From: a virus
Direction: 5' to 3' (one strand)
Virus genome (UHGV): UHGV-0371537
Length of the DNA stretch: 64,000 nucleotides
The notes below the pieces were generated by a model. The model saw nothing but the letters and a program-made list of their open reading frames with translations, had not been told where the DNA came from and did not search any database. Positions 18,894 to 37,385 of this stretch are shown here, one piece after another (within the stretch, counting starts at the first letter, position 1; the number at the start of each line of letters is the position of its first letter). Made by a program: the position numbers and the translations under genes.

Positions 18894-20093
18894 ATGAAAG
18901 ATAAAGCCCTGGACGTCCCGTACTGCGGTGTCCGCGAAGAAAAGATAAAGTCGGCCAAACCGGTTCTCAGTCCGACCCATACCCGCCTGTCTTATGACTG
19001 GATGAGCGAGCGCTATAAGATCCACGTTCGAAAGGACGTCCAGCGTCTTCCTGCTCCTTGGACGAATAATCCTATACTACGGCAGGTCAAGTTCTGTAAC
19101 GTCCGGAGAGAGCACGACAGGCAGTCTCTTAACCTGATCAACAACATCGTCAACAACGATGCTCTGGGTATGGCAGACAAGATGTTTAACTGCGTGCTGT
19201 TCCGCATGTTCAACCTCTGGGATCCGATCCAGGCTATCGGCGGCGCGATGACGATCAAAGAATTCGCCAAGATTAATCTTGACGCAACCCGTGAACGACT
19301 TCAGAAGTTCGAGGCTGACGGTGGTAAGGTATTCACCAATGCCTTCAACACAGGCGGCCTGAAGCAATGCCTGGCTTTCCCTGAGATGGTTGTCAACCAC
19401 AAGGAGCAGCTCTTCGGTGGGATGATGGTGAAAGTGTATCGCGTTGGCCAGGGTATTGTGGACGAGATGGACTACAAGGTCGCCAAGAAGCTGGTCGAAG
19501 AGAATCCTGGTGAATATACCATCGAGGGATGGGAACCGTACATGCCAATGCGTGTCATCCGTTCCCTGAAGGCATTCGTCAACAAGTATCCAAATTACTT
19601 CCATGACCTGCTGCGCCTTGGTACTCCTCTGGAAGTATACCAGCGCATGTACGACGACATCGAAGGGCTTGGTCCATTCCTGGCTTATCAGATCTGGGTG
19701 GACTTCACGTACATTCCTGAGTATCCGTTTAGTGAGAACCACTTCACGGTTGCTGGACCAGGCTGTCGTGCAGGCATCGACCTGATGTTCCTGAACAAAG
19801 ACGGTATGACCCACGAAGAATGCATCTTCTGGTTACGGGACAACCAGGACGCAGTGTATTCCCAATATGGATATGTTCGTGAGCAATTCTGGTCTGCGGA
19901 AGAGCCTTGGGATCAGTGTATGAATGTTCAACAATTAGAAAACCACTTTTGTGAATTGTCGAAATATACCCGTTGTGTAGAGGCTTTACAGCAAGGTAAA
20001 AAACCGCGCGGGAAGGTTGGATACGATGGGGAAGGACAACCTAAAGCGGCGACATCTGGTTCTAAAAACCTACTAAATTTATTTAAAAAGTAA
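18894..20093 (+). CDS. hypothetical protein (conserved-looking, function unknown)
   Basis: 399 aa, AAGAGGA RBS, preceded by terminator hairpin; no motif I can assign. Confidence 0.5.
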   Translation: MKDKALDVPYCGVREEKIKSAKPVLSPTHTRLSYDWMSERYKIHVRKDVQRLPAPWTNNPILRQVKFCNVRREHDRQSLNLINNIVNNDALGMADKMFNCVLFRMFNLWDPIQAIGGAMTIKEFAKINLDATRERLQKFEADGGKVFTNAFNTGGLKQCLAFPEMVVNHKEQLFGGMMVKVYRVGQGIVDEMDYKVAKKLVEENPGEYTIEGWEPYMPMRVIRSLKAFVNKYPNYFHDLLRLGTPLEVYQRMYDDIEGLGPFLAYQIWVDFTYIPEYPFSENHFTVAGPGCRAGIDLMFLNKDGMTHEECIFWLRDNQDAVYSQYGYVREQFWSAEEPWDQCMNVQQLENHFCELSKYTRCVEALQQGKKPRGKVGYDGEGQPKAATSGSKNLLNLFKK

Positions 20094-20152: not shown

Positions 20153-21082
20153 ATGTTTTACGAATTATTGATTTCTAAAGGCGGTAAACCGCATTTTATC
20201 AAGAAGTATTTGAGGATGGTTCAATCTTTCAAATATTCTGATAGTGACTACACTGAATTACACCACATCCTTCCCAAGAGCATGTTCCCTGAATATTCTA
20301 AAGATAAGATAAATTTGGTTCGATTAACAGGCAGACAACATTATCTTGTCCATGTATGCTTGGCCTTGGCTTTCCCAAACACGAGAATGGTGTATGCTGT
20401 TGTAGCTATGAGAAAGGGAGGAAGAAGAAATAAATCAGGTATTCGGTTTAATTCTCATTTGTATGAAAGTTTCAGAATTAAATTCAGCGAACAACTATCT
20501 TTACAATGGAAAGGGGTTTCTCGGTTTGTGGGTAAAGACAACCCAATGTATGGGAGAAGAGGAAAGAATAATCCCCAATATGGGTATAAGAGAACTCCAG
20601 AGCAAGTCAAGAAAATTACCAAAGGATTGATGAAAATCCATGAAAGGATGGCTTCTGATCCGGAATATAAAAGAGAAGTTTTAGAGCAGCGTCGTACCAA
20701 TACGGATTTAAAGCAATTTTCTGAGCGTTCCCGCCAAGCAAAACTCGGTGAACTCAATCCTAATTATGGGAAGGACTTAACCAACTCTTTCACACCGGAA
20801 CAACGCGCCAAACAGAAAGAAAACGCTCAGAAAGGCATGTTGGCTAAGATGCCTTGGGAGAAGGGTAAATGGAACCCCGACAATGACGTATATTGGGAGA
20901 AAGCTGATCAATTCCTTGAAGCCCTGAATACGATGAAACGTTCAGAAGCCCTCTTGTTCGTGTATGGAACAAAAGATCTGAAGGCGTTTAATGCCACCAG
21001 TGGGATAATCGAACGTTTCAATAAAGGCTGGGAACCATTAAAATGCGTAAAATGGTTAAAAAGATATAAGGGTGAAAAATGA
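20153..21082 (+). CDS. HNH family homing endonuclease with NUMOD repeats (mob-like)
   Basis: ELHHILPKS...NLVRLTGRQHY (HNH), GKDNPMYGRRGKNNPQYG and NPNYGK NUMOD-like repeats; RBS inside a 10-bp hairpin. Confidence 0.75.
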   Translation: MFYELLISKGGKPHFIKKYLRMVQSFKYSDSDYTELHHILPKSMFPEYSKDKINLVRLTGRQHYLVHVCLALAFPNTRMVYAVVAMRKGGRRNKSGIRFNSHLYESFRIKFSEQLSLQWKGVSRFVGKDNPMYGRRGKNNPQYGYKRTPEQVKKITKGLMKIHERMASDPEYKREVLEQRRTNTDLKQFSERSRQAKLGELNPNYGKDLTNSFTPEQRAKQKENAQKGMLAKMPWEKGKWNPDNDVYWEKADQFLEALNTMKRSEALLFVYGTKDLKAFNATSGIIERFNKGWEPLKCVKWLKRYKGEK

Positions 21083-21422: not shown

Positions 21423-23441
21423 ATGTCAGAATTTAAGCCCTTCGCAGTAGCTGTTAACAACAACGTGCTGGCCATGTCAGCAACTGGTCTGTTCATGACC
21501 AACATCGATAAAGATGCTCTGTGGGATCTGTATCTGTCTTCTTTCCCTGCTGGCACCAACCCGCTCTACCGTGAGCGTACCGAGCACGACTGCACCTGCT
21601 GCAAACAATTCATCCGTAATATCGGTGGTGTGGTTACCATCGACACTGACCTGAACGTGATCTCTATCTGGGATAACATTCAGCTGGGCAACGAATACGA
21701 CGTTGTCGCTGCGGCGCTGTCTGCGTATGTCAAGCAACACGCAATCGTCGACGTGTACTTCAACGATACCAAGAAAGTCGGTGTTGAGTCGAATCACGAA
21801 ATGAAAGACGGTAATGTCCGCACCTACAACCACTTCCACACCGACCTGCTGCCCAGCTATGTTCTGCGGGCTGATGCCATCGCTTCTAAGAAGGGTGAAA
21901 TCCGTCAGGCGATTGAAGTGTTTGAGCGCGGCCTGCGTGAACTGTCTCTGGAATCGGCTGAAATCGTTCTGGAATTGATCGACCAGAATTCTCTGTATCG
22001 CGGTGAAGAGCACAAGGCGGCAGTGCAGGCGTTCGTGGTGAACAAGACCCTGTACGAACAGACTGCAGAAGAGAAACGCGCTCTGTGGGCTTGGCGCACT
22101 GGCTATCATGCGAACGGTCATACCCCTCACGGCATTCGTAATACCGTGATTGGCTCTCTGTTGGTAGACCTCAACGAAGGCCGCGACCTGGAAACCGCCG
22201 TCAAGTCTTTCGAAGCCAAAGTAGCTCCGACGAACTACAAGCGCCCAACCGCGCTGGTAACTAAGTCGATGATCGAAAATGCGCAGAAAGAAGTTGAAGC
22301 GCTGGGTCTGACCGATTCACTGGGTCGCCGTTATGCCGTGTATGACGATCTGACCATCAACAACGTTCTGTTTGCCGACCTGGCAGCACAGAAGAAGATG
22401 GACCCGTTTGCTCAGCTGGCGTCTGAAGTGAAGACTCCGACCAAGTCCCTGGACAAGGTTGAAGAGATCACCATCGACGACTTCCTGGCGAACGTGCTGC
22501 CGAAAGCGCACTCAATGGAAGTGCTGGTTGAGAACTCTCACACTGGCAACCTGATGTCCCTGATCGCTCCGGCTACGGCAGGTGCTCCTAACCTGTTCAA
22601 GTGGAACAACGGCTTCAGCTGGTCATACAACGGTGAAGTGGCCGACTCCATCAAAGAGCGCGTGAAGACAGCAGGTGGCAACGTTGACGGTTTCCTCCGT
22701 GTGTCGCTGGCGTGGCATAACAACGACGACCTGGATCTGAGCCTGAACGATCCTTTACACAATCATGTGTATTACCACAACCGTCGCTCAGCAACTGGCG
22801 CAACCCTGGATATCGACATGAACGGTATGGACGGCATTGACCCGAATCGCCGCCCGGTGGAGAACATCTTCTTCAGCGATGAGCGCAAGCTGCGTAATGG
22901 TCTGTACGAGTTCTATGTCACTAACTTCAGCCAGCGTGAAACCTGTGATATGGGCTTCGAAATCGAAGTCGAATACAAAGGCCAGACCAAGCGTTTTTCG
23001 CATCCTGGCCTGAAGCACAAAGATCGCACTCTGGCTGTTGTGATTGATGTCCGCGCCGGACAGGTGGTAGACATCCGCTCTACTCTGAAAGACGATGCTC
23101 GTTCTCAGGAAATCTGGGGCATCAAGACCTCGGTCTTCCAGAAGGTACAGCTGGTTCTGAACTCACCAAACCATTGGGACGGCGAGCAGACGGGCAACAA
23201 GCACGTGTTCTTCATCCTGGAAGGTTGTGCTAACCCTGTCGGCACTCGTGGCTTCTATAACGAATATCTGAAGCCGGAACTGGATAAACACCGTAAGGTT
23301 TTTGAAATGTTAGGTAGTAAGATGAAAGTACAGCCAAGCACTGAGCAGCTGTCCGGTCTGGGCTTCTCTACCACCCAACGCAACCACGTGTTCGTGAAGG
23401 TGAGCGGCTCGTTCAACCGCACTGTAAAAGTTGTGTTCTAA
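21423..23441 (+). CDS. large hypothetical protein (672 aa), unassigned
   Basis: AGGA RBS; no Walker, vWA or nucleotidyltransferase motif seen; first gene of a + strand block running to the NAD cassette. Confidence 0.6.
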   Translation: MSEFKPFAVAVNNNVLAMSATGLFMTNIDKDALWDLYLSSFPAGTNPLYRERTEHDCTCCKQFIRNIGGVVTIDTDLNVISIWDNIQLGNEYDVVAAALSAYVKQHAIVDVYFNDTKKVGVESNHEMKDGNVRTYNHFHTDLLPSYVLRADAIASKKGEIRQAIEVFERGLRELSLESAEIVLELIDQNSLYRGEEHKAAVQAFVVNKTLYEQTAEEKRALWAWRTGYHANGHTPHGIRNTVIGSLLVDLNEGRDLETAVKSFEAKVAPTNYKRPTALVTKSMIENAQKEVEALGLTDSLGRRYAVYDDLTINNVLFADLAAQKKMDPFAQLASEVKTPTKSLDKVEEITIDDFLANVLPKAHSMEVLVENSHTGNLMSLIAPATAGAPNLFKWNNGFSWSYNGEVADSIKERVKTAGGNVDGFLRVSLAWHNNDDLDLSLNDPLHNHVYYHNRRSATGATLDIDMNGMDGIDPNRRPVENIFFSDERKLRNGLYEFYVTNFSQRETCDMGFEIEVEYKGQTKRFSHPGLKHKDRTLAVVIDVRAGQVVDIRSTLKDDARSQEIWGIKTSVFQKVQLVLNSPNHWDGEQTGNKHVFFILEGCANPVGTRGFYNEYLKPELDKHRKVFEMLGSKMKVQPSTEQLSGLGFSTTQRNHVFVKVSGSFNRTVKVVF

Positions 23442-24826: not shown

Positions 24827-25681
24827 ATGTTTCGTTTGAAATTGAACGACCAAGATGTGTTCTATAAGCACTTCACCTTCCCAGGTGGTGAGGAACATAT
24901 CAAGATCCAAAAGGCTGGAATCCCTATCGGCCACGTCCAGAACGTGGTGATTGATGCTCACATCAAATCCTCTGCTGACTTCGTTGAGCTGGCACTGCTG
25001 GTTAACGCTGTTCGTGGCCTGGGTAACGTGGACCGTCTGACGGCATTCCATGCATATATCCCGTACTTCCCATATGCGCGTCAGGATCGTCATTGTGACT
25101 TTGGTGAGCCTCTGTCCGTGAAGTGGGCGGCTGAGTTCATCAACAGCATGAACTTTGACCGCGTGGCGATCAAAGACCCTCATAGCCATGTCGTGTCTTC
25201 TCTGATCAACAACGTCCATGTGGTCCCGCAAGATTACATCGTGCGTCAATATCTGGGCTGGTTCATTCGCGGCAACAATGCTGTGCTGGTAGCCCCTGAC
25301 GGCGGCGCGGCGAAGAAGACCGAAGCCCTCAGCCTGTCATTGGACGGCGTTCCTGTTGTCTACGGACACAAGAACCGTGACACCAAGACTGGTGAGATCA
25401 TTGGGGTGAGTATTACAAACCCTGAACTGATCAAAGACCGCTATCTGGTTGTGGTTGATGATATCTGCGACGGTGGGCGCACGTTTGTTGAGCTGGGCAA
25501 AGAGCTTCAGAAGCACGAGCCTAAGCACATGACGCTCTTCGTCACCCATGGCATCTTCAGCAAAGGTCTCTCTGTTTTCGACGGGATCTATGATGCTGTG
25601 TATGCCGACACTGTCTGGTGGGAGAACATCACCGCCGACGGTCTTCCTTTCAAAACTGAAAATACAGGACGTGTAAAATGA
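24827..25681 (+). CDS. ribose-phosphate pyrophosphokinase (Prs) homolog; candidate ADP-ribose pyrophosphate synthetase (Adps) of an NAD+ reconstitution pathway
   Basis: IPYFPYARQDR and VVVDDICDGGRTF match Prs motifs (E. coli IPYFGYARQDRR, VLVDDMIDTGGTL); 4-nt overlap with downstream NAMPT-like gene. Confidence 0.8.
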   Translation: MFRLKLNDQDVFYKHFTFPGGEEHIKIQKAGIPIGHVQNVVIDAHIKSSADFVELALLVNAVRGLGNVDRLTAFHAYIPYFPYARQDRHCDFGEPLSVKWAAEFINSMNFDRVAIKDPHSHVVSSLINNVHVVPQDYIVRQYLGWFIRGNNAVLVAPDGGAAKKTEALSLSLDGVPVVYGHKNRDTKTGEIIGVSITNPELIKDRYLVVVDDICDGGRTFVELGKELQKHEPKHMTLFVTHGIFSKGLSVFDGIYDAVYADTVWWENITADGLPFKTENTGRVK

Positions 25682-27342
25682 GCATGCGCCACTTAGATCC
25701 GATCCATGCAATCGACTTCTACAAATCAGGGCACATCTATCAGTTCCCTGAAGGCAGCGAGCTGGTGTTCTCCAACGGAACTCCGCGCTCCAACAAACTG
25801 TTCAACTCTCACCTGCCGAAGAACGGCGTGGTGGTCTGGGGCATCCAGGGCTTCATGACTTGGTTCCATGAACTGTTTGACGAAGCATTCTTCCAGCGCC
25901 CGAAGGCCAAGGTGTTGAAGAAGTATGCCCGTCGCATGAACAAAGTCCTGGGTCCAGGTCGTGTTGGTACAGAGCATATTGAAGCCCTGCATGACCTCGG
26001 CTACCTGCCTATCGAAGTCCGTGCGCTGCCCGAAGGCACCATGTGTCCGTATGGCGTTCCGGTGTATGTGATGTTCAACACCTTGCCGGAGTTCTACTGG
26101 CTGACCAACTATCTGGAGACTGTGTTCAGCTCTGAGATCTGGAAGCCGATGACGAACGCCACCATCGCCCTGCATTACAAGGCACTGATGGTGAAAGCCG
26201 CTATCGCTACAGGTGTGTCGCCGGACCATTGGTTCATCGACTACCAAGGCCACGACTTCTCCTTCCGTGGCATGAGCGGGTGGCATGACGCGGCGTCTTC
26301 CGGTTCCGGCCATTTGGTATTCTTCAAAGGCACCGATACCAACCCTGCCCTGGACTTCGTAGAAGAGTATTATGGCGCAGACATCGACGAAGACTATGTC
26401 GTTGCTGGTTCTGTTGCGGCTACCGAACACGCCGTGATGTGTATGGGCACGAAGGATGGTGAATTCGAAACCTTCCGCCGCCTGGTGCAGGACGTGTATC
26501 CTGATGGCATCGTCAGTATCGTATCTGATGCATGGGATTACTGGCAGGTCATCGACGACTATCTCCCTCGCCTGAAAGACATTATCATGGCGCGTAACGG
26601 TAAAGTCGTGATCCGCCCCGACTCGGGCGACCCAGTACACATCGTTGGCGGCTACCGCATCGAGGGGTTCAAAGACCGCGCCACGCTGAACATCAGCGGC
26701 GTGTCTAGCAGCACCGAAGTCATTCACATCGAAGAGACGAACACCTATCACCTGATCACAGGCGAAGGCACGATCAATTCTCTGATGGCAGACGACCGTA
26801 ATATCATCAGCCGTTCTGAAGCAGTCGGCTCTATCCAGCGCCTGTGGGAGATCTTTGGCGGTACTCAAACTGAGACTGGTCACTTCCTTTTGGATGATCA
26901 CATCGGTCTGATCTACGGCGACTCCATCACCCTGGCACGTGAAGACCAGATCTTTAGCCGTCTGGCTGGCCGGAACTTCGCTTCCATCAACGTGGTGTTC
27001 GGTATCGGTTCCTACACCTACCAGATGAACACCCGTGACAGTACTGGCACGGCAGTGAAAGCCACGGCTGGTAAAGTGAACGGCGAATTCCGTGAGATCT
27101 TCAAAGAGCCGAAGACCGACAAAGGCGGGACTAAAAAGTCTGCACGTGGTTTCCTTAAAGTCATTAAAGACTCTCAGGGTAAACTAGTGTTGGTTGACGG
27201 TATCACCTTTGATCAGGTACAAGACGCCGACAACCAGCACCAACTGGTGTATCGTGATGGTAAGTTCTTCAACACTCAGACTCTGGAAGATGCGCGTGTT
27301 CGTGCTGCTCCTCTGGTGGCGGAACTGGCCTCACAAATCTGA
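25678..27342 (+). CDS. nicotinamide phosphoribosyltransferase (NAMPT) homolog; candidate nicotinamide ADP-ribose transferase (Namat)
   Basis: 554 aa; N-terminal AIDFYKSGHIYQF resembles the NAMPT DSYK region; family call from memory; no NMNAT (HxGH) gene seen nearby. Confidence 0.75.
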   Translation: MSMRHLDPIHAIDFYKSGHIYQFPEGSELVFSNGTPRSNKLFNSHLPKNGVVVWGIQGFMTWFHELFDEAFFQRPKAKVLKKYARRMNKVLGPGRVGTEHIEALHDLGYLPIEVRALPEGTMCPYGVPVYVMFNTLPEFYWLTNYLETVFSSEIWKPMTNATIALHYKALMVKAAIATGVSPDHWFIDYQGHDFSFRGMSGWHDAASSGSGHLVFFKGTDTNPALDFVEEYYGADIDEDYVVAGSVAATEHAVMCMGTKDGEFETFRRLVQDVYPDGIVSIVSDAWDYWQVIDDYLPRLKDIIMARNGKVVIRPDSGDPVHIVGGYRIEGFKDRATLNISGVSSSTEVIHIEETNTYHLITGEGTINSLMADDRNIISRSEAVGSIQRLWEIFGGTQTETGHFLLDDHIGLIYGDSITLAREDQIFSRLAGRNFASINVVFGIGSYTYQMNTRDSTGTAVKATAGKVNGEFREIFKEPKTDKGGTKKSARGFLKVIKDSQGKLVLVDGITFDQVQDADNQHQLVYRDGKFFNTQTLEDARVRAAPLVAELASQI

Positions 27343-27350
27343 TAACCGAA

Positions 27351-27373
27351 GGGGAGGCAACTCCCCTGTTTCG
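27351..27373 (+). terminator. hairpin after NAMPT-like gene (weak T-run)
   Basis: GGGGAG-GCAA-CTCCCC then TGTTTCG. Confidence 0.4.
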
Positions 27374-27383
27374 AGGTCGAGGA

Positions 27384-27554
27384 ATGTCCAAACCATTCAA
27401 AAATGCGGGTGTCGACAACCTCGACCGCCGCTTTAGCCCATCGGAAACGCTGATGAGTCAGATTGAACTCAATCGCGATTTCCTGGAACATATGCTGGTC
27501 AAGCCGGAAGGTGAGGCCGAAGACAACCCTGAAGAAGGCAATAACGATGATTGA
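27384..27554 (+). CDS. small acidic protein overlapping the vWA gene start
   Basis: 56-aa ORF MSKPFKNAGV...EEGNNDD; GAGG RBS; stop overlaps vWA start (ATGATTGA); not in ORF track. Confidence 0.35.
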   Translation: MSKPFKNAGVDNLDRRFSPSETLMSQIELNRDFLEHMLVKPEGEAEDNPEEGNNDD

Positions 27555-29808
27555 ATCCCTGGAGTTTAAGAATGCGGTTTCGACTGTTGCTCCGTCCAAC
27601 CATGTAATCGTTGTGGACATCTCTTATTCGATGTACCGTGCGCTCCCTGAAGTCCGTAAGCACCTGAAGGAGAACCTGCCTTCCCTGGTGAAACCGGAAG
27701 ACACTGTGAGCCTCCTATACTTCTCATCCCGTGGCGACTTTGGTACTGTGTTCTCTGGTCGCCAGATCAGTGTTGCGTCTGATCTGAGCGAGCTGAACAA
27801 ACTGATTGATCGCTTCCTGCAACCATCCGGCTGTACTGGTTTTGTTGAACCTCTGGGTCTGGCGGTAGATACTGCGCGCAGTCTGAAGAAACCCGGCTAT
27901 GTCAACAACCTGGCATTCATGACCGATGGTTATGACAACTGCTGGCGCTCCAATGAGATCCTGGCCGTTGCCGAAACCTTGCCATTCGTCTTTGATAACA
28001 TCACTTTCATCGAATACGGCTGGTACTGTAACCGCGAACTGCTGGCTCAGATGTCTGAGCGTTCCGGCGCGACTCACGTGTTCGCCGAAGGCCAGACTGA
28101 ATATCAGACTGAGCTGGAAAACGTGTTGAAGTCCTCGGTGCCGAAGGTTCGTGTTGACGTTCCTCTGGTGTACACTCACGCCATTTATGTCGAAAACGGC
28201 GTAGCAACCGTGCTGGCGGTGCAAGCCGAAGCAAGAATGGATTTCCAGATTGGCGATGAGTCCGTAAAACGGAAAGTGATTGAAGTAGGCCACGTGAGCA
28301 TCCCTGAGAGCGTCACGAAGCTGTGGGTTGTCAATCCTAACATGATCGACCAGCTTGATGCGCTGGCGGACATCCAGGCGGCATACGTGCTGGCGTTCTA
28401 CGGCGTACACATCATGGACGCAGACCTGGTGTGGGCTGCACTGAAGAAAACGGGCGACGTTCGCTTCATCAAACAGTACAGCAACTGCTTCACCAAGCAG
28501 GACTACTCCAACATCAAAGTTGATCTGACCCAGGCCATCGTTGATGACCAGCTGCGCGGCGTTGATGGTATCGATTACAATATGGTCCCGGCTGAAGATG
28601 CCACGACCGTGGTTGATGTGCTGACGTACCTGGCCGAAGCTGGCGTGTCTGTTGCCACCAAGCACCCGATGTTCTCCTACAAGAGTATCGGTCGCGGTAC
28701 TGTACAGAAAGCCGACGACACCGAAGACAAACTGGCCGAAGAAATCGCGAACGCCCAGTCCAAAGAAGAGCGCAAAGCCCTGGCTCTCAAGCTGGCCGAG
28801 CACGAAGAGTGGACGCCGTCGTTTGAACCTGCCAATGATCTGGGTGTGGTTCCAATCAGCGACCTGGTCTATAACTCCGAGCGCCCGAACATCAGTGTGC
28901 GGACAGTGCAGCATGGTACTGTTGCAGTTCCTGAGTTCGCGCAGAAGAAGTACGGCCTGCCTGAAGAACTTGACACCTTCCAGTGGCGCAATTACACCAT
29001 CGTCAAAGATGGTATCATCAACGTGAAGACTCTACCGTTTAGACATACCGAATCACCAGTCCGGGGTGCTGAGGTTGTGCAAAAGCTGATCGAGATGGGC
29101 GTTCACGTGTTTGGTGGTCCAGAAGTGTTCATCTTGAACCTGGAAAGCGTACCGCTGGTCAACCGTGCGATGGTCAAGAACATCAGTGCTGCTCAGTTCT
29201 TTGCGGACAATGTCCGCCTGGAAGCCCTGAAAGGCAAGCAGAAGGTGCTGAAGTTCTATCGCGACGCTCTGGTTGGTAAAGGCAATGCCAAAGGTCTGGC
29301 TATTCAGTACGGCGCTGAGGCCGCAGAATACCTGTCTGGTGTTGGCATTCGCGATTACGGCTTCTCGCCGAAGACTGAGACCAAGGAGTCTACCGACTTC
29401 TACATGAGCCGTGAGCTGAACGTTAAGATCGCTGGCGCTTCTTCCCTGCCGAGCATCGCAGCGGTACAGAAGAAGATTGCCGACAAAAAGACTCTCAATG
29501 CGGGTGATATGTTCATCGCCAATGCCCTGAAAGAGTACGATGCATTCGTGAAGTCCCCGGCGATCACTGCCGTGCCTGAAGCCGTACAGAAACAGCTGAT
29601 CGAAAACTGGATCGACGCTGCTGCCAAGGCGGCCATCACTGAAGTCCGCGCTCTGAACAAGACGCTGTCTAAAGTGGTTTATGGTATCGTTGCTGGCCAC
29701 GGCTGGTTCACCGACCTCGACCTGGAAGAGTCCACCATGGAAGTTGAAGTGGATGGCGTGAAGTACAAGGTCACTGCCGAACTGGCAGAGAAAGAGATCA
29801 AAATCTAA
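27547..29808 (+). CDS. von Willebrand factor A (vWA) domain protein, 753 aa
   Basis: MIDAS-like HVIVVDISYSMY (DxSxS) with downstream T and MTDGYDN; start moved to ATG 27547 (GAAGAAGG RBS); rest unassigned. Confidence 0.65.
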   Translation: MIESLEFKNAVSTVAPSNHVIVVDISYSMYRALPEVRKHLKENLPSLVKPEDTVSLLYFSSRGDFGTVFSGRQISVASDLSELNKLIDRFLQPSGCTGFVEPLGLAVDTARSLKKPGYVNNLAFMTDGYDNCWRSNEILAVAETLPFVFDNITFIEYGWYCNRELLAQMSERSGATHVFAEGQTEYQTELENVLKSSVPKVRVDVPLVYTHAIYVENGVATVLAVQAEARMDFQIGDESVKRKVIEVGHVSIPESVTKLWVVNPNMIDQLDALADIQAAYVLAFYGVHIMDADLVWAALKKTGDVRFIKQYSNCFTKQDYSNIKVDLTQAIVDDQLRGVDGIDYNMVPAEDATTVVDVLTYLAEAGVSVATKHPMFSYKSIGRGTVQKADDTEDKLAEEIANAQSKEERKALALKLAEHEEWTPSFEPANDLGVVPISDLVYNSERPNISVRTVQHGTVAVPEFAQKKYGLPEELDTFQWRNYTIVKDGIINVKTLPFRHTESPVRGAEVVQKLIEMGVHVFGGPEVFILNLESVPLVNRAMVKNISAAQFFADNVRLEALKGKQKVLKFYRDALVGKGNAKGLAIQYGAEAAEYLSGVGIRDYGFSPKTETKESTDFYMSRELNVKIAGASSLPSIAAVQKKIADKKTLNAGDMFIANALKEYDAFVKSPAITAVPEAVQKQLIENWIDAAAKAAITEVRALNKTLSKVVYGIVAGHGWFTDLDLEESTMEVEVDGVKYKVTAELAEKEIKI

Positions 29809-29815
29809 TCCAACA

Positions 29816-29839
29816 GGCGGGGCAACCCCGCCTTTCTTT
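29816..29839 (+). terminator. rho-independent terminator after vWA gene
   Basis: GGCGGGG-CAA-CCCCGCC then TTTCTTT. Confidence 0.7.
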
Positions 29840-29851
29840 GGGAGAAGTAAC

Positions 29852-30175
29852 ATGAGCGGTAAACCAACATATGTTGAGGTAATGCGCCACCTGGCCCGGT
29901 ACGCCACCGATAATCTGAATATGGATCTGTGGCGTGACGATGACAAGCGCAAACTGCTGGATGATGTGGCGGCTCAAAACGAGGATGCCCTGGACAAGCT
30001 GGCTGGCCTCCGCACCAAGAAAGACCTCGGCGGCGACGAACTCGATGCCATAGAAATCGTAATGGATCTCGAAGAAGAGTTTCAGGTCGAAATCGACGAC
30101 GGTTGGCTGGGTAGTAAAGGCGATGACCCGACCATGGGTGAACTCGCTGAACTCGTGGTCGCCCTGCGCAAATAA
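29852..30175 (+). CDS. acyl carrier protein-like protein with acceptor Ser replaced by Glu
   Basis: DLGGDELDAIEIVMDLEEEFQVEI vs E. coli AcpP [24 protein letters not shown]; the phosphopantetheine-accepting S of DSL is E here. Confidence 0.7.
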   Translation: MSGKPTYVEVMRHLARYATDNLNMDLWRDDDKRKLLDDVAAQNEDALDKLAGLRTKKDLGGDELDAIEIVMDLEEEFQVEIDDGWLGSKGDDPTMGELAELVVALRK

Positions 30176-35666: not shown

Positions 35667-37385
35667 GTGACAGCATTCAATCAATATACCAAGGCGCTTG
35701 ATGGCGTCGGACCAGTTAGCATAGACCGCATCAAGTCTCTTGCCACTGAGTTCTTCCCATACGACACCGCCAACCCCGGCCAGATGGAGTGCATCGTTGA
35801 AGCCGTTGATGCCCTTGTGAATAAGAAATTCAAACACGTGATCATCGAGGCTCCAACTGGTGTGGGCAAATCCCTCATTGGCACGACCATCCATAACGTG
35901 CTTCGCCATCTGGTTCTTGAGCGCAACCCATATGGTCAGTTCCGCACGTCTATCACGACGCCGACCAAAGGGCTACAGGATCAGTATGCGGCGGAGAAAG
36001 CCGTGGCGATAGACATCCTGAAGGGTAAGAAAAACTATCGTTGCCATATCAGTCCCGACCTGTACTACAACGCCATTCAGTGTCGTATGGCATGCCGTGA
36101 CGGCCACTGTAGTAAGAATCGTTGCCCATATGTTCAGGCTCGTCGTCTTTGGACGGATATCTCCTCCCTGCGCTGCACCAACGCCGCCATGATGGTGGAG
36201 ATGTGCACGACGATCTGTATGAAGCCCGAAAACCGCGCCGATATGCTGATCCTTGACGAGTGCCATAAGATGCCCTCTACGCTCCTAGAGCACACGATCA
36301 TGGAATACAGTATAAATGCTGTAAGAGGGTTGCTTACAATCCCCGAGGGAGTGCCTATCGTGGAGACCATCACGGATATCATCAGGCGCACAGAAAACTA
36401 TGAGCTGGGCAAGCTGTACTCACTAACAGGTGAGATGCATGCGATCTTTGACGACCTGCATGACAAGGTTGAAGCCCTCTTAGAAACCCTTGAGGAACTG
36501 GTAGAAGACGAGCGCCTGACGGAAGCTCAGGTGATGAAGCTGTCTGACATCATTGACACCCTTCACAACCTCAGCGACTACTGTGGCATCATGGGTCAGA
36601 CCAACGCCAGCACCTTCATCGTTCAGGAAAAAGACAAGGGTATGATCCAGTTCAAGCCTGTCATCGCATCTGATGTGTCTCAGTTCGGCCTGTTCCGCAA
36701 GGGCGATTACCATGTTCACATGTCAGCGACCATCTGCGGGATTGAGTCCTATGCTCGTTCTCTGGGTATCCGTGAGGGCGAATATCACAAGATTCAAATC
36801 GGCAACCCCATCCCGATTGAGAATCGTAAGGTCAACTACATGCCCGTCATGAAGATGTCGGCCAACATGGGCGACTACGAGATGAAGAAGCTGGCCGAGT
36901 ACGTGGATGAGATCATTGCATTCCATCCAGGACAGTCTGGCATCATTCACACAGTCAGTTATGACCGCGCTCTGGCTCTACAGAAGTTCAGCAAGTACCG
37001 GAATATGATTCACGTTCCTCGTACTCGTAAGGCTCTGATGGATATCATGGAGCAGGCGTTCAGGACGAAGACGCCTTGTGTCATCGCCAGTCCGGCTATG
37101 GAAGAGGGGTATGACTTCAAAGGCGATTACAGCCGCTTCCAGATCCTGATCAAGGTTCCATACGATTACCTTGGTGACCCGCTTGTGGCTCATGTAAACA
37201 GTGTAGACCCTTCGGCATACTTCAGGATGGCGGTACTGCGTATCGTGCAGATGTGCGGGCGCTCGGTCAGGGGTGTGAATGACTGGGCTGCGACATACAT
37301 CCTTGATTCTTCATTTGAATCATTAATGATGCGCAACCCAGAGTTCTTCCCCGCATGGTTCACCGATGCTGTGTTCGAGGTTTAG
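35667..37385 (+). CDS. DinG/XPD-like SF2 DNA helicase with Fe-S cluster domain
   Basis: Walker A EAPTGVGKS, DEAH-type LILDECHK, four-Cys cluster CHISPD...CRMACRDGHCSKNRCPY; GTG start with AGGAGG RBS. Confidence 0.7.
   Translation: MTAFNQYTKALDGVGPVSIDRIKSLATEFFPYDTANPGQMECIVEAVDALVNKKFKHVIIEAPTGVGKSLIGTTIHNVLRHLVLERNPYGQFRTSITTPTKGLQDQYAAEKAVAIDILKGKKNYRCHISPDLYYNAIQCRMACRDGHCSKNRCPYVQARRLWTDISSLRCTNAAMMVEMCTTICMKPENRADMLILDECHKMPSTLLEHTIMEYSINAVRGLLTIPEGVPIVETITDIIRRTENYELGKLYSLTGEMHAIFDDLHDKVEALLETLEELVEDERLTEAQVMKLSDIIDTLHNLSDYCGIMGQTNASTFIVQEKDKGMIQFKPVIASDVSQFGLFRKGDYHVHMSATICGIESYARSLGIREGEYHKIQIGNPIPIENRKVNYMPVMKMSANMGDYEMKKLAEYVDEIIAFHPGQSGIIHTVSYDRALALQKFSKYRNMIHVPRTRKALMDIMEQAFRTKTPCVIASPAMEEGYDFKGDYSRFQILIKVPYDYLGDPLVAHVNSVDPSAYFRMAVLRIVQMCGRSVRGVNDWAATYILDSSFESLMMRNPEFFPAWFTDAVFEV

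Follow-up and report, generated by a model that had tools for sequence, protein, structure and literature searches.

The gene at 27547 to 29808 of the window, the 64,000-nucleotide stretch of UHGV virus genome UHGV-0371537 analysed here, is real and is strongly conserved among large phages of the T4-like and Vi1-like kinds. Its product, a protein of the vWA family, is a large and slowly evolving core gene product with one fixed architecture. We tentatively propose, with a little less than even confidence, that it serves as a stand-alone Mg2+-dependent protein-binding adaptor in the cytoplasm of the infected cell; that the product of the small acidic ORF lying just upstream is its ligand or regulator is the weaker part of this proposal.

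The vWA protein family and its domains

The gene and the parts of its product are as follows.

27547 to 29808, + strand: vWA-family gene, 753 aa, 83.3 kDa, pI 5.2, full-length member of PHROG 2426
27547 to 28137, + strand: vWA (Rossmann-like alpha/beta) domain, residues 1-197
27616 to 27630, + strand: MIDAS DxSxS motif (D24-I-S26-Y-S28); the other MIDAS residues are T97 (27835-27837) and D127 (27925-27927)
28138 to 28335, + strand: beta-sandwich, residues 198-263, packed like those that follow the vWA domain in ArnB, Sec24, ITIH1 and 4fx5
28336 to 29805, + strand: C-terminal region, residues 264-753

The window belongs to an Agtrevirus-like phage of the Ackermannviridae. The PHROG 2426 profile, labelled "unknown function" in the database, aligns with the whole protein (E = 0, 1232 bits; residues 1-753 on profile positions 2-736 of 736) and matches all 48 of the aligned homologues. 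The family extends over 504 phage records and 1,384 clusters at 50% identity, with an identical architecture throughout. At the DNA level, the gene is 88-91% identical to its counterparts in Agtrevirus and related Ackermannviridae phages, while protein identity is 46-48% with members from Straboviridae and 33-50% across phage families. Named members include LIMEstone1 ORF108 ('vWa containing protein'), the Vi01 and CBA120 orf143 homologues, EspM4VN gp161, KP15_100 from a Klebsiella phage and TH1_124 from Shewanella phage Thanatos; all display the same succession of vWA domain, beta-sandwich and C-terminal region as the window protein, and nothing essential differs. The gene had already been annotated as encoding a vWA-domain protein before the present analysis.

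The family is part of the 114-gene core of Vi01-like phages, and also occurs in Straboviridae, Slopekvirus among them, in phages of Rhizobium, Shewanella, Ralstonia and Bacillus, and in metagenomic viral contigs of 300-450 kb. A bacterial, non-phage branch of homologues was rejected: a search of 185,579 species genomes gave just 6 loci, and their contigs either have the size of a phage or carry uncharacterised genes only. Our literature search found no transcriptomics of Kuttervirus and no functional study of the PHROG 2426 vWA protein.

The Rossmann-like fold of about 180-200 residues by which the vWA superfamily is recognised is present in the window protein, and its MIDAS is complete. Over 48 sequences, D24, S26 and S28 are conserved at 90% or more and T97 and D127 are invariant, metal binding being a prediction. 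The window protein scores below the 27-bit gathering cut-off of Pfam (VWA_3, 15.6 bits; VWA_2, 15.2 bits), and across the family VWA_2 is matched by 42 of 48 members (best E 2e-9) and PF00092 by 21 of 48. These scores and counts point to a divergent vWA branch, which only profile and structure recognise securely. The beta-sandwich is the least conserved stretch of the protein; the copy in the window phage is longer here by some 15-20 aa, inserted at roughly residues 227-247, where the confidence of the model is low.

The C-terminal region makes up about 490 of the 753 residues and is as constrained as the recognisable vWA domain. In the predicted structure it begins with a helical bundle, passes through an alpha/beta part to a beta-rich one, continues in long paired helices and closes with a beta-hairpin. 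The C-terminal part holds 22 near-invariant polar or charged residues, and the invariant motifs R446-P-N-x-S450 and R481-N...D488-G-I490 sit in the beta-rich part. Sequence and structure searches with residues 264-753 returned no relative whose structure or function is known, and the BFVD fold search returned family members only. The initial annotation had described a 753-aa MIDAS-type vWA protein with some 550 further residues free of assignable motifs and distinct from rIIA. This description stands, the beta-sandwich being the sole addition; moreover, in a related genome rIIA and rIIB are annotated as genes of their own.

The small acidic ORF and the genome setting

Upstream and downstream of the vWA gene, the following elements were identified.

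27350 to 27367, + strand: short G+C-rich hairpin AGGGGAG-GCAA-CTCCCCT, downstream of the NAMPT/Namat stop codon and upstream of the small ORF
27373 to 27383, + strand: Shine-Dalgarno-like GAGG (27373-27376, 7 nt 5' of the ATG) and a second GAGGA, for the small ORF, from sequence reading
27384 to 27554, + strand: small acidic ORF, 56 aa, pI 4.36, PHROG 8656
27531 to 27538, + strand: GAAGAAGG, Shine-Dalgarno-like element for the vWA gene, within the final small-ORF codons and 8 nt before the vWA ATG
27547 to 27554, + strand: ATGATTGA, where the vWA ATG overlaps the small-ORF stop codon, from sequence reading
29815 to 29833, + strand: intrinsic-terminator-like hairpin of 8 bp (7 G-C) followed by TTCTTT, -18.6 kcal/mol, z -2.4

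The overlap between the vWA start codon and the stop codon of a 56-aa acidic ORF (pI 4.4), noted earlier, is indeed found at ATGATTGA; the layout is suited to translational coupling, and the annotations of EspM4VN, CBA120, Maynard and KpS110 show the identical overlap. Judged on its sequence, the small ORF is a real gene. It has a dN/dS of about 0.3, and its product, which has neither cysteine nor detectable domain, comprises a helix-like conserved core (vL..Q.E.NR.F.E.ML) and a G-x-N-D-D tail at the C-terminus. Some of the conservation in the tail may come from the vWA gene, whose Shine-Dalgarno element and start codon overlap it. The small ORF is limited to one of the 28 lineages compared, the one holding the core Ackermannviridae loci, and elsewhere the upstream ORFs are unrelated or absent; a coupled small ORF as a family-wide trait was therefore rejected, and with it the idea of a general companion of these vWA proteins.

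The hairpin upstream of the small ORF (-16.1 kcal/mol, z -1.5, not significant) was not picked up by the terminator scan and has no proper T-run, and is at most a weak attenuator. No promoter-like site was seen in the 41-nt spacer between NAMPT/Namat and the small ORF, so that in the window phage the small ORF and vWA gene are probably co-transcribed with the Prs/NAMPT pair. The terminator-like hairpin begins 7 nt past the vWA stop codon, ahead of an acyl-carrier-protein gene. The vWA gene is not part of the structural module and shares its strand and its block with early and replication genes; from this position and one promoter-like site, we infer expression in the early or replication phase.

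Candidate partners and possible roles

The neighbourhood of the gene was compared over 75 loci from 28 lineages (1,944 ORFs within 8 kb on each side, clustered at BLAST level). No gene family neighbours the vWA gene in more than 6 of the 28 lineages, and the recurrent neighbour families inspected include no AAA+ family, MoxR/CobS ATPases among them. The complete, collinear EspM4VN genome has no annotated MoxR/CobS gene in the portions read, that is all but about 6 kb (100-106 kb), and the sole AAA+ protein among the scanned ORFs of the window is the gp44 clamp loader. Over this scope, the initial annotation was right in finding no MoxR/CobS partner.

A link to thymidine hypermodification was also considered, as a 5-hmdU DNA kinase gene lies 7 kb upstream of the vWA gene, but it was rejected since the distributions differ. 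Among Klebsiella-phage records, the kinase is found in 45 and the vWA family in 160, which suggests that Slopekvirus-type phages are without it; the kinase also occurs in Vibrio, Microbacterium and Pseudomonas phages, groups that are not prominent among the phages with the vWA family. The question had also been raised by Bacillus phage SP-15, a distant relative from the BFVD fold search, whose DNA is hypermodified.

In the adaptor role that we propose, the vWA protein, a phage-specific protein of the cytoplasm, would act alone through Mg2+-dependent protein binding. As in all characterised MIDAS-type vWA domains, its MIDAS would bind a carboxylate group on a partner protein, whether from Asp, Glu or the C-terminus, and residues 264-753 would supply a family-specific activity or a second binding surface. 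The protein would act in the early or replication phase and not as a major virion part. More weakly, the co-translated 56-aa protein of core Ackermannviridae, with its conserved helix and -NDD tail, could be the MIDAS ligand or a regulator, and the small ORF and vWA gene could form a two-gene unit made in fixed proportion.

The 22 conserved polar or charged C-terminal residues, among them those of the two invariant motifs, speak against a purely passive adaptor, as the protein could on this reading of the sequence be an enzyme or a nucleic-acid binder. An unlikely extension is that residues 264-753 form a new fold with an activity of its own, the 22 residues suggesting a catalytic or nucleic-acid/nucleotide-binding site; the MIDAS would gate this activity through a carboxylate ligand, which in core Ackermannviridae would be the 56-aa protein. 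Such a minimal, AAA+-independent two-protein switch, loosely like ArnA/ArnB, would if true represent a core function of Ackermannviridae and several T4-like phage groups.

Virion proteomics has to be weighed as well. The protein might be present in the virion at low copy number, be ejected from it or help to assemble it; its vWA domain would then bind a structural partner or, once ejected, a target on the host surface or in the periplasm. Mass spectrometry of LIMEstone1 virions identified ORF108 by 6 unique peptides with 11.4% coverage, similar to low-copy baseplate proteins and well above four 'unexpected' one-peptide proteins, and this argues for some virion association and against the adaptor role. 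The Sajous1 result conflicts with it, as in CsCl-purified virions the homologue gave 1 spectrum against 80-900 for true structural proteins. The homologue was also detected in Thanatos particles, but the PEG preparation contained ligase, polynucleotide kinase and rII proteins as well, so that this detection does not discriminate; the reports on stained virion bands of EspM4VN, phiPD10.3/23.1 and phiD3 do not mention it among their proteins. Some records label homologues as tail or minor tail proteins, although these are unverified automatic labels, and there is precedent in the MoxR-vWA pairs proposed for virion or tail assembly. The position outside the structural module, and an N-terminus in which neither a signal peptide nor a protease-cleaved targeting sequence can be made out by eye, speak against a virion role, which we consider improbable.

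A role as nucleic-acid accessory factor, comparable to TFIIH p44/p34, Ku or INTS13-14, is rather more doubtful; the vWA domain would dock on a helicase or replisome protein, with DNA or RNA contacted by the C-terminal part, which is basic and conserved. As in that comparison, the gene is set among DNA-metabolism genes. That the protein pairs with the Rad3-like helicase at 35667-37385, in the manner of p44 and XPD, was rejected on mismatched distributions, the vWA protein seemingly not being co-distributed with the phage XPD-like helicase.

There is little likelihood that the protein serves host takeover or anti-defence, its MIDAS sequestering a host protein, possibly together with NARP1. The Prs/NAMPT pair beside the gene is the known NARP1 anti-defence operon (Adps and Namat), KP15 has an NMN adenylyltransferase/Nudix gene some 6 kb from its vWA gene, small unknown ORFs abound in the early-gene regions where the family sits, and vWA domains serve as peptide-binding modules in conflict systems. 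However, Prs/NAMPT adjoins the vWA gene in only 7 of the 75 loci, from 2 of 28 lineages with a common synteny, and this adjacency is absent in Kuttervirus and Taipeivirus (CBA120, Maynard, KpS110). NARP1 has moreover been described as a two-gene NAD+ reconstitution operon sufficient by itself. The adjacency being lineage-specific and the operon self-sufficient, the link was rejected: the vWA protein is not a component of the NARP1 NAD+ pathway, and its position beside the NAD cassette appears incidental. PADLOC returned no match, on which a defence-system component was rejected and which also counts against anti-defence, and the gene is large, slowly evolving and core, unlike typical anti-defence genes, which are sporadic and evolve fast. 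Thus the initial observation was real and its interpretation is supported in part, but the association with the NAD cassette that it implied is not, the co-occurrence check having come out against it.

That the protein is a chelatase-type or MoxR-dependent cochaperone (CobT-, ChlD/BchD-, ViaA- or NorD-like), whose AAA+ ATPase would come from another locus or from the host, is highly improbable given the partner search above, a vWA domain that is N-terminal and not C-terminal, the lack of CobT or chelatase matches in Pfam and NCBIfam, and hosts ranging from Enterobacteria to Rhizobium, Shewanella and Bacillus, which make a common host AAA+ partner unlikely.

Comparison with known vWA systems

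Nothing found so far overturns current understanding. Among the conserved "dark" proteins of big virulent myoviruses, PHROG 2426 is one of the larger, several Vi01-like phages have been studied for biocontrol and therapy, and a function assigned to the family would annotate well over a thousand protein clusters.

Like RavA-ViaA, NorQ-NorD, BchI-BchD/ChlD and CobS-CobT, the phage system has a MIDAS-type vWA domain in an intracellular protein of prokaryotic type. In CobT, ChlD, ViaA and NorD the vWA domain is at the C-terminus; that of the phage protein is N-terminal (1-197), and is accompanied neither by an AAA+ partner nor by the family-specific domains. CobT or chelatase identity was rejected, as neither Pfam nor NCBIfam gave a CobT, CobT_C or Mg-chelatase match. 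Clear homology to a known structural or metabolic vWA protein, CobT for example, would by the initial annotation have made the gene unremarkable, but no such homology to a characterised protein was found. TFIIH p44/p34, Ku70/80 and INTS13/14 likewise carry an N-terminal vWA domain in a larger intracellular protein. By comparison with TFIIH p44/p34 and Ku70/80, the phage MIDAS is intact, and neither a Ku-like barrel nor zinc-finger domains were found.

The module of vWA domain plus beta-sandwich is common to the phage protein and the Sec23/Sec24 trunk, ITIH1 and the structural-genomics protein 4fx5. The helical and gelsolin domains of Sec23/24 are unmatched by the phage C-terminal model, and a full Ku-like or Sec23/24-like architecture was rejected as the match is confined to this module; Sec23/24 has no functional MIDAS, and ITIH is extracellular. 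The partner ArnA of ArnB reportedly carries zinc-ribbon and FHA domains, and the partner or fused zinc-finger (and FHA), helical and gelsolin modules of the ArnB and Sec23-24 systems are not found with the phage protein. ArnB, which has 380 aa and 15% sequence identity to the phage protein, is without its 490-aa C-terminal module; regulation by Ser/Thr phosphorylation is not indicated for the phage protein. In ArnB of Sulfolobus acidocaldarius (PDB 8s05_B; paralogue VWA2, 5a8j; ArnA-ArnB complex), the vWA domain is directly followed by a packed beta-sandwich, as in the window protein. A function assigned to PHROG 2426 would add to these systems a vWA architecture that apparently works without the usual AAA+ partner.

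Layout of the small-ORF/vWA gene pair

In the window, the vWA gene follows a small acidic ORF whose end it overlaps, in this order:

24827-25681: Prs-like gene, upstream of the pair
25678-27342: NAMPT-like gene, upstream of the pair
27384-27554 (+): small acidic ORF, 56 aa (MSKPFKNAGV...EGNNDD), pI 4.36, 14 acidic versus 6 basic residues
27547-29808 (+): vWA ORF, 753 aa, 83.3 kDa
29815-29833: strong terminator-like hairpin (-18.6 kcal/mol), downstream of the vWA gene
29852-30175: acyl-carrier-protein (ACP) gene (PHROG 4154, PP-binding), just 3' of the hairpin

The Prs-like and NAMPT-like genes share a 4-nt overlap (25678-25681), while the small ORF and the vWA ORF overlap by ATGATTGA. A GAAGAAGG element lies within the last small-ORF codons, 8 nt before the vWA ATG, a position that would suit translational coupling. 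The ORF finder also gives a longer vWA start, TTG at 27463; homologue alignments begin at the MI... start. The vWA signature reads VIVVDISYSMY at residues 20-30 and MTDGYDN at residues 124-131. Read directly from ORFs, residues and coordinates, the signature, the overlap and the gene positions are in every particular as the initial annotation described them. An ACP gene follows the vWA gene in EspM4VN and Serratia phage 3M as well; no cognate synthase or phosphopantetheinyl transferase was seen near the window copy.

The small ORF is present in 210 Ackermannviridae records and overlaps the vWA start in all five inspected (EspM4VN, CBA120, Maynard, KpS110 and the window). It is under purifying selection (median dN/dS 0.31 over 45 pairs). 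Conserved features are its helix-like core and the G-x-N-D-D at its C-terminus, although the overlapping vWA ribosome-binding site and start codon may account for some of the conservation in the tail. The ORF was found in only one of 28 lineages, and in Miltonvirus, KP15 and others the ORF upstream of the vWA gene is unrelated or absent.

A phage-specific family with a conserved C-terminal region

The 2.4-kb stretch that holds the pair is 88-91% identical to Ackermannviridae phages, namely Salmonella phage pSal-SNUABM-02, Enterobacter phage EspM4VN, Shigella phage Ag3 and Dickeya Limestonevirus phages. The vWA protein belongs to a family already catalogued though uncharacterised, PHROG 2426 ("unknown function"), whose match spans it from end to end and many members of which are annotated in databases as vWA-domain proteins. 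The Pfam vWA model barely detects the window protein (15.6 bits against a 27-bit cut-off); among 48 homologues, VWA_2 matches 42 (best E 2e-9) and PF00092 21.

At the MIDAS positions D24, S26, S28, T97 and D127 conservation is complete or at least 90%. The C-terminal region (264-753) is conserved nearly as well as the vWA domain: columns at least 90% conserved make up 15% of residues 426-545 versus 16% of the vWA domain, and 22 near-invariant polar or charged residues are spread over 264-753, such as R446-P-N-x-S450, R481-N482, D488-G-I490, N539-R540 and K562/K566. The least conserved part is the beta-sandwich, in which the window copy carries, relative to its 733-743-aa relatives, an insertion of about 15-20 aa (AEARMDFQIGDESVKRKVIEV; 28225-28287, approximately residues 227-247) that causes the megablast alignments to fall into two pieces and falls where the structure model is least confident. 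The protein is a stand-alone one, in which a MIDAS-complete vWA domain with its beta-sandwich is joined to a large and conserved C-terminal region that has no structural match.

The vWA protein has 210 matches among 5.8 billion proteins, and the best 120 are nearly all about 675-790 aa long with 96-100% query coverage. A profile of residues 196-753 alone retrieved 1,384 representative clusters at E <=1e-3 (887 at <=1e-30), and in nearly all of the best 150 some 200 residues precede the match; the few clusters with a shorter N-terminal part may be truncated ORFs. By tblastn the family is present in 504 phage records, including Ackermannviridae, Straboviridae (KP15, classified as Slopekvirus, and other 170-180-kb coliphage-like genomes), Shewanella phage Thanatos, Rhizobium phages, Ralstonia phage RP13 and some Bacillus phages, and in IMG/VR it also occurs on metagenomic viral contigs of 300-450 kb. 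A search of 185,579 bacterial and archaeal species genomes gave only six loci, all on contigs that are phage-sized or carry only uncharacterised genes. The 114-gene core genome of Vi01-like phages lists the vWA gene, which is phage-specific and a core gene in Ackermannviridae.

A homologue with 33% identity is present in a bacterial assembly, on a very large contig of Achromobacter anxifer (NZ_CAHLAR010000005.1, 486,889 bp; locus 296911-310965). None of the ten neighbouring ORFs tested there has a PHROG match, and the larger candidate ORFs are mostly on a single strand; the contig may belong to a jumbo phage not recognised as such, or to a megaplasmid.

Expression and virion proteomics

In Salmonella phage Maynard, an annotated terminator followed by TTGGCA-N16-TAATAT (L010, the Maynard locus, 290-345, upstream of Maynard_86) lies directly ahead of the pair. 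This is a predicted near-consensus sigma-70-like, early-type promoter, and in Kuttervirus the pair may form its own early transcription unit. In the window, the 41-nt spacer between the NAMPT-like gene and the small ORF has a weak hairpin but no promoter-like site, and transcription of the upstream Prs-like and NAMPT-like genes (NARP1, below) therefore probably continues into the small-ORF/vWA pair.

Virion proteomic evidence is mixed across four phages. The homologue was recovered from LIMEstone1 virions with six unique peptides (11.4% coverage), from CsCl-purified Sajous1 virions with one spectrum, and from a PEG preparation of Thanatos alongside ligase, PNK and rII proteins; the text of the EspM4VN account of 18 proteins from stained bands does not mention it. 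The protein is certainly produced and is not a major virion component, while minor or adventitious packaging is possible. Rivals to the adaptor role proposed below, possible but less likely, are a minor protein of the virion, an assembly protein, or a factor that serves DNA transactions in the manner of p44/Ku.

Gene neighbourhood and proposed role

The Prs-like and NAMPT-like pair (24827-27342) matches NARP1, a published anti-defence operon. Its Adps pyrophosphorylates ADP-ribose and its Namat attaches nicotinamide, and NAD+ is thereby rebuilt against NAD-depleting defences; the route is not classical PRPP/NMN salvage. The initial annotation placed the vWA gene beside these genes, which is correct, and suggested a tie to them, which did not stand. 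NARP1 is described as two genes sufficient alone, and a review reports NAMPT and RPPK as variably present across Agtrevirus phages. NARP1 was found within 8 kb of the vWA gene in only 7 of 75 IMG/VR loci, from two lineages sharing wider synteny, and in CBA120, Maynard and KpS110 another gene precedes the pair. A host-takeover or anti-defence function of the vWA protein is possible, though less likely than the adaptor role; shared ancestry and insertion site account best for its adjacency to NARP1, rather than a functional tie. In Klebsiella phage KP15, a gene noted as similar to bifunctional NMN adenylyltransferase/Nudix hydrolase (L008, the KP15 locus, 1-1044), which we take to be a NARP2-type enzyme, lies about 6 kb upstream of the homologue KP15_100; this looser proximity is regarded as shared early-region location.

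We clustered 1,944 ORFs from the 75 loci and the window, 8 kb either side of the vWA gene, in 28 lineages set at 55% vWA identity. No neighbour family was shared by more than six lineages, and the recurrent ones inspected were housekeeping-like (e.g. topoisomerase II subunits, a capsid-like protein, a PhoH-like protein) or not identifiable. That no MoxR/CobS-type AAA+ partner is found, as first noted, holds for the window ORFs scanned (sole AAA+, the gp44 clamp loader), for recurrent neighbours in the 28 lineages and for the EspM4VN annotation apart from about 6 kb at 100-106 kb; a MoxR-dependent cochaperone is possible, with that search against it.

Other genes of the window were recorded:

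18894-20093: 399-aa ORF with a Pfam match (E 3.8e-81) to the 5-hmdU DNA kinase helical domain; in Vi1-like phages this kinase serves thymidine hypermodification, and it is distributed among phages differently from the vWA family
20153-21082: 309-aa ORF with a NUMOD3 motif, a probable free-standing homing endonuclease located between the genes for the kinase and the 672-aa protein; found in only 8 of 75 loci
21423-23441: 672-aa protein without Pfam match, hypothetical in EspM4VN; its place upstream of the vWA gene is the same in three lineages, one of which holds the distant locus L082 (1009-3045)
35667-37385: Rad3/XPD/DinG-type helicase (Helicase_C_2, ResIII), with relatives in Ackermannviridae, Vibrio and Rhizobium phages, haloarchaeal tailed viruses, Bacillus phage G and Lak megaphages

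To our knowledge, every characterised MIDAS-type vWA domain (integrin I-domains, ITIH, MoxR cochaperones) uses its metal to bind a protein ligand at a carboxylate, and for this reason the most economical mechanism would be a stand-alone Mg2+-dependent protein-binding adaptor, acting in the cytoplasm in the early or replication phase, with the C-terminal module supplying its specific role. In core Ackermannviridae the co-translated acidic 56-aa protein would be the obvious candidate ligand or regulator. Nothing highly surprising was found, and the protein is a good target for structure-function work. The pair may be loosely analogous to ArnA/ArnB. The phage protein differs from characterised vWA systems in that no AAA+ partner was found for it, in its N-terminal vWA domain and in its novel C-terminal 490 aa.
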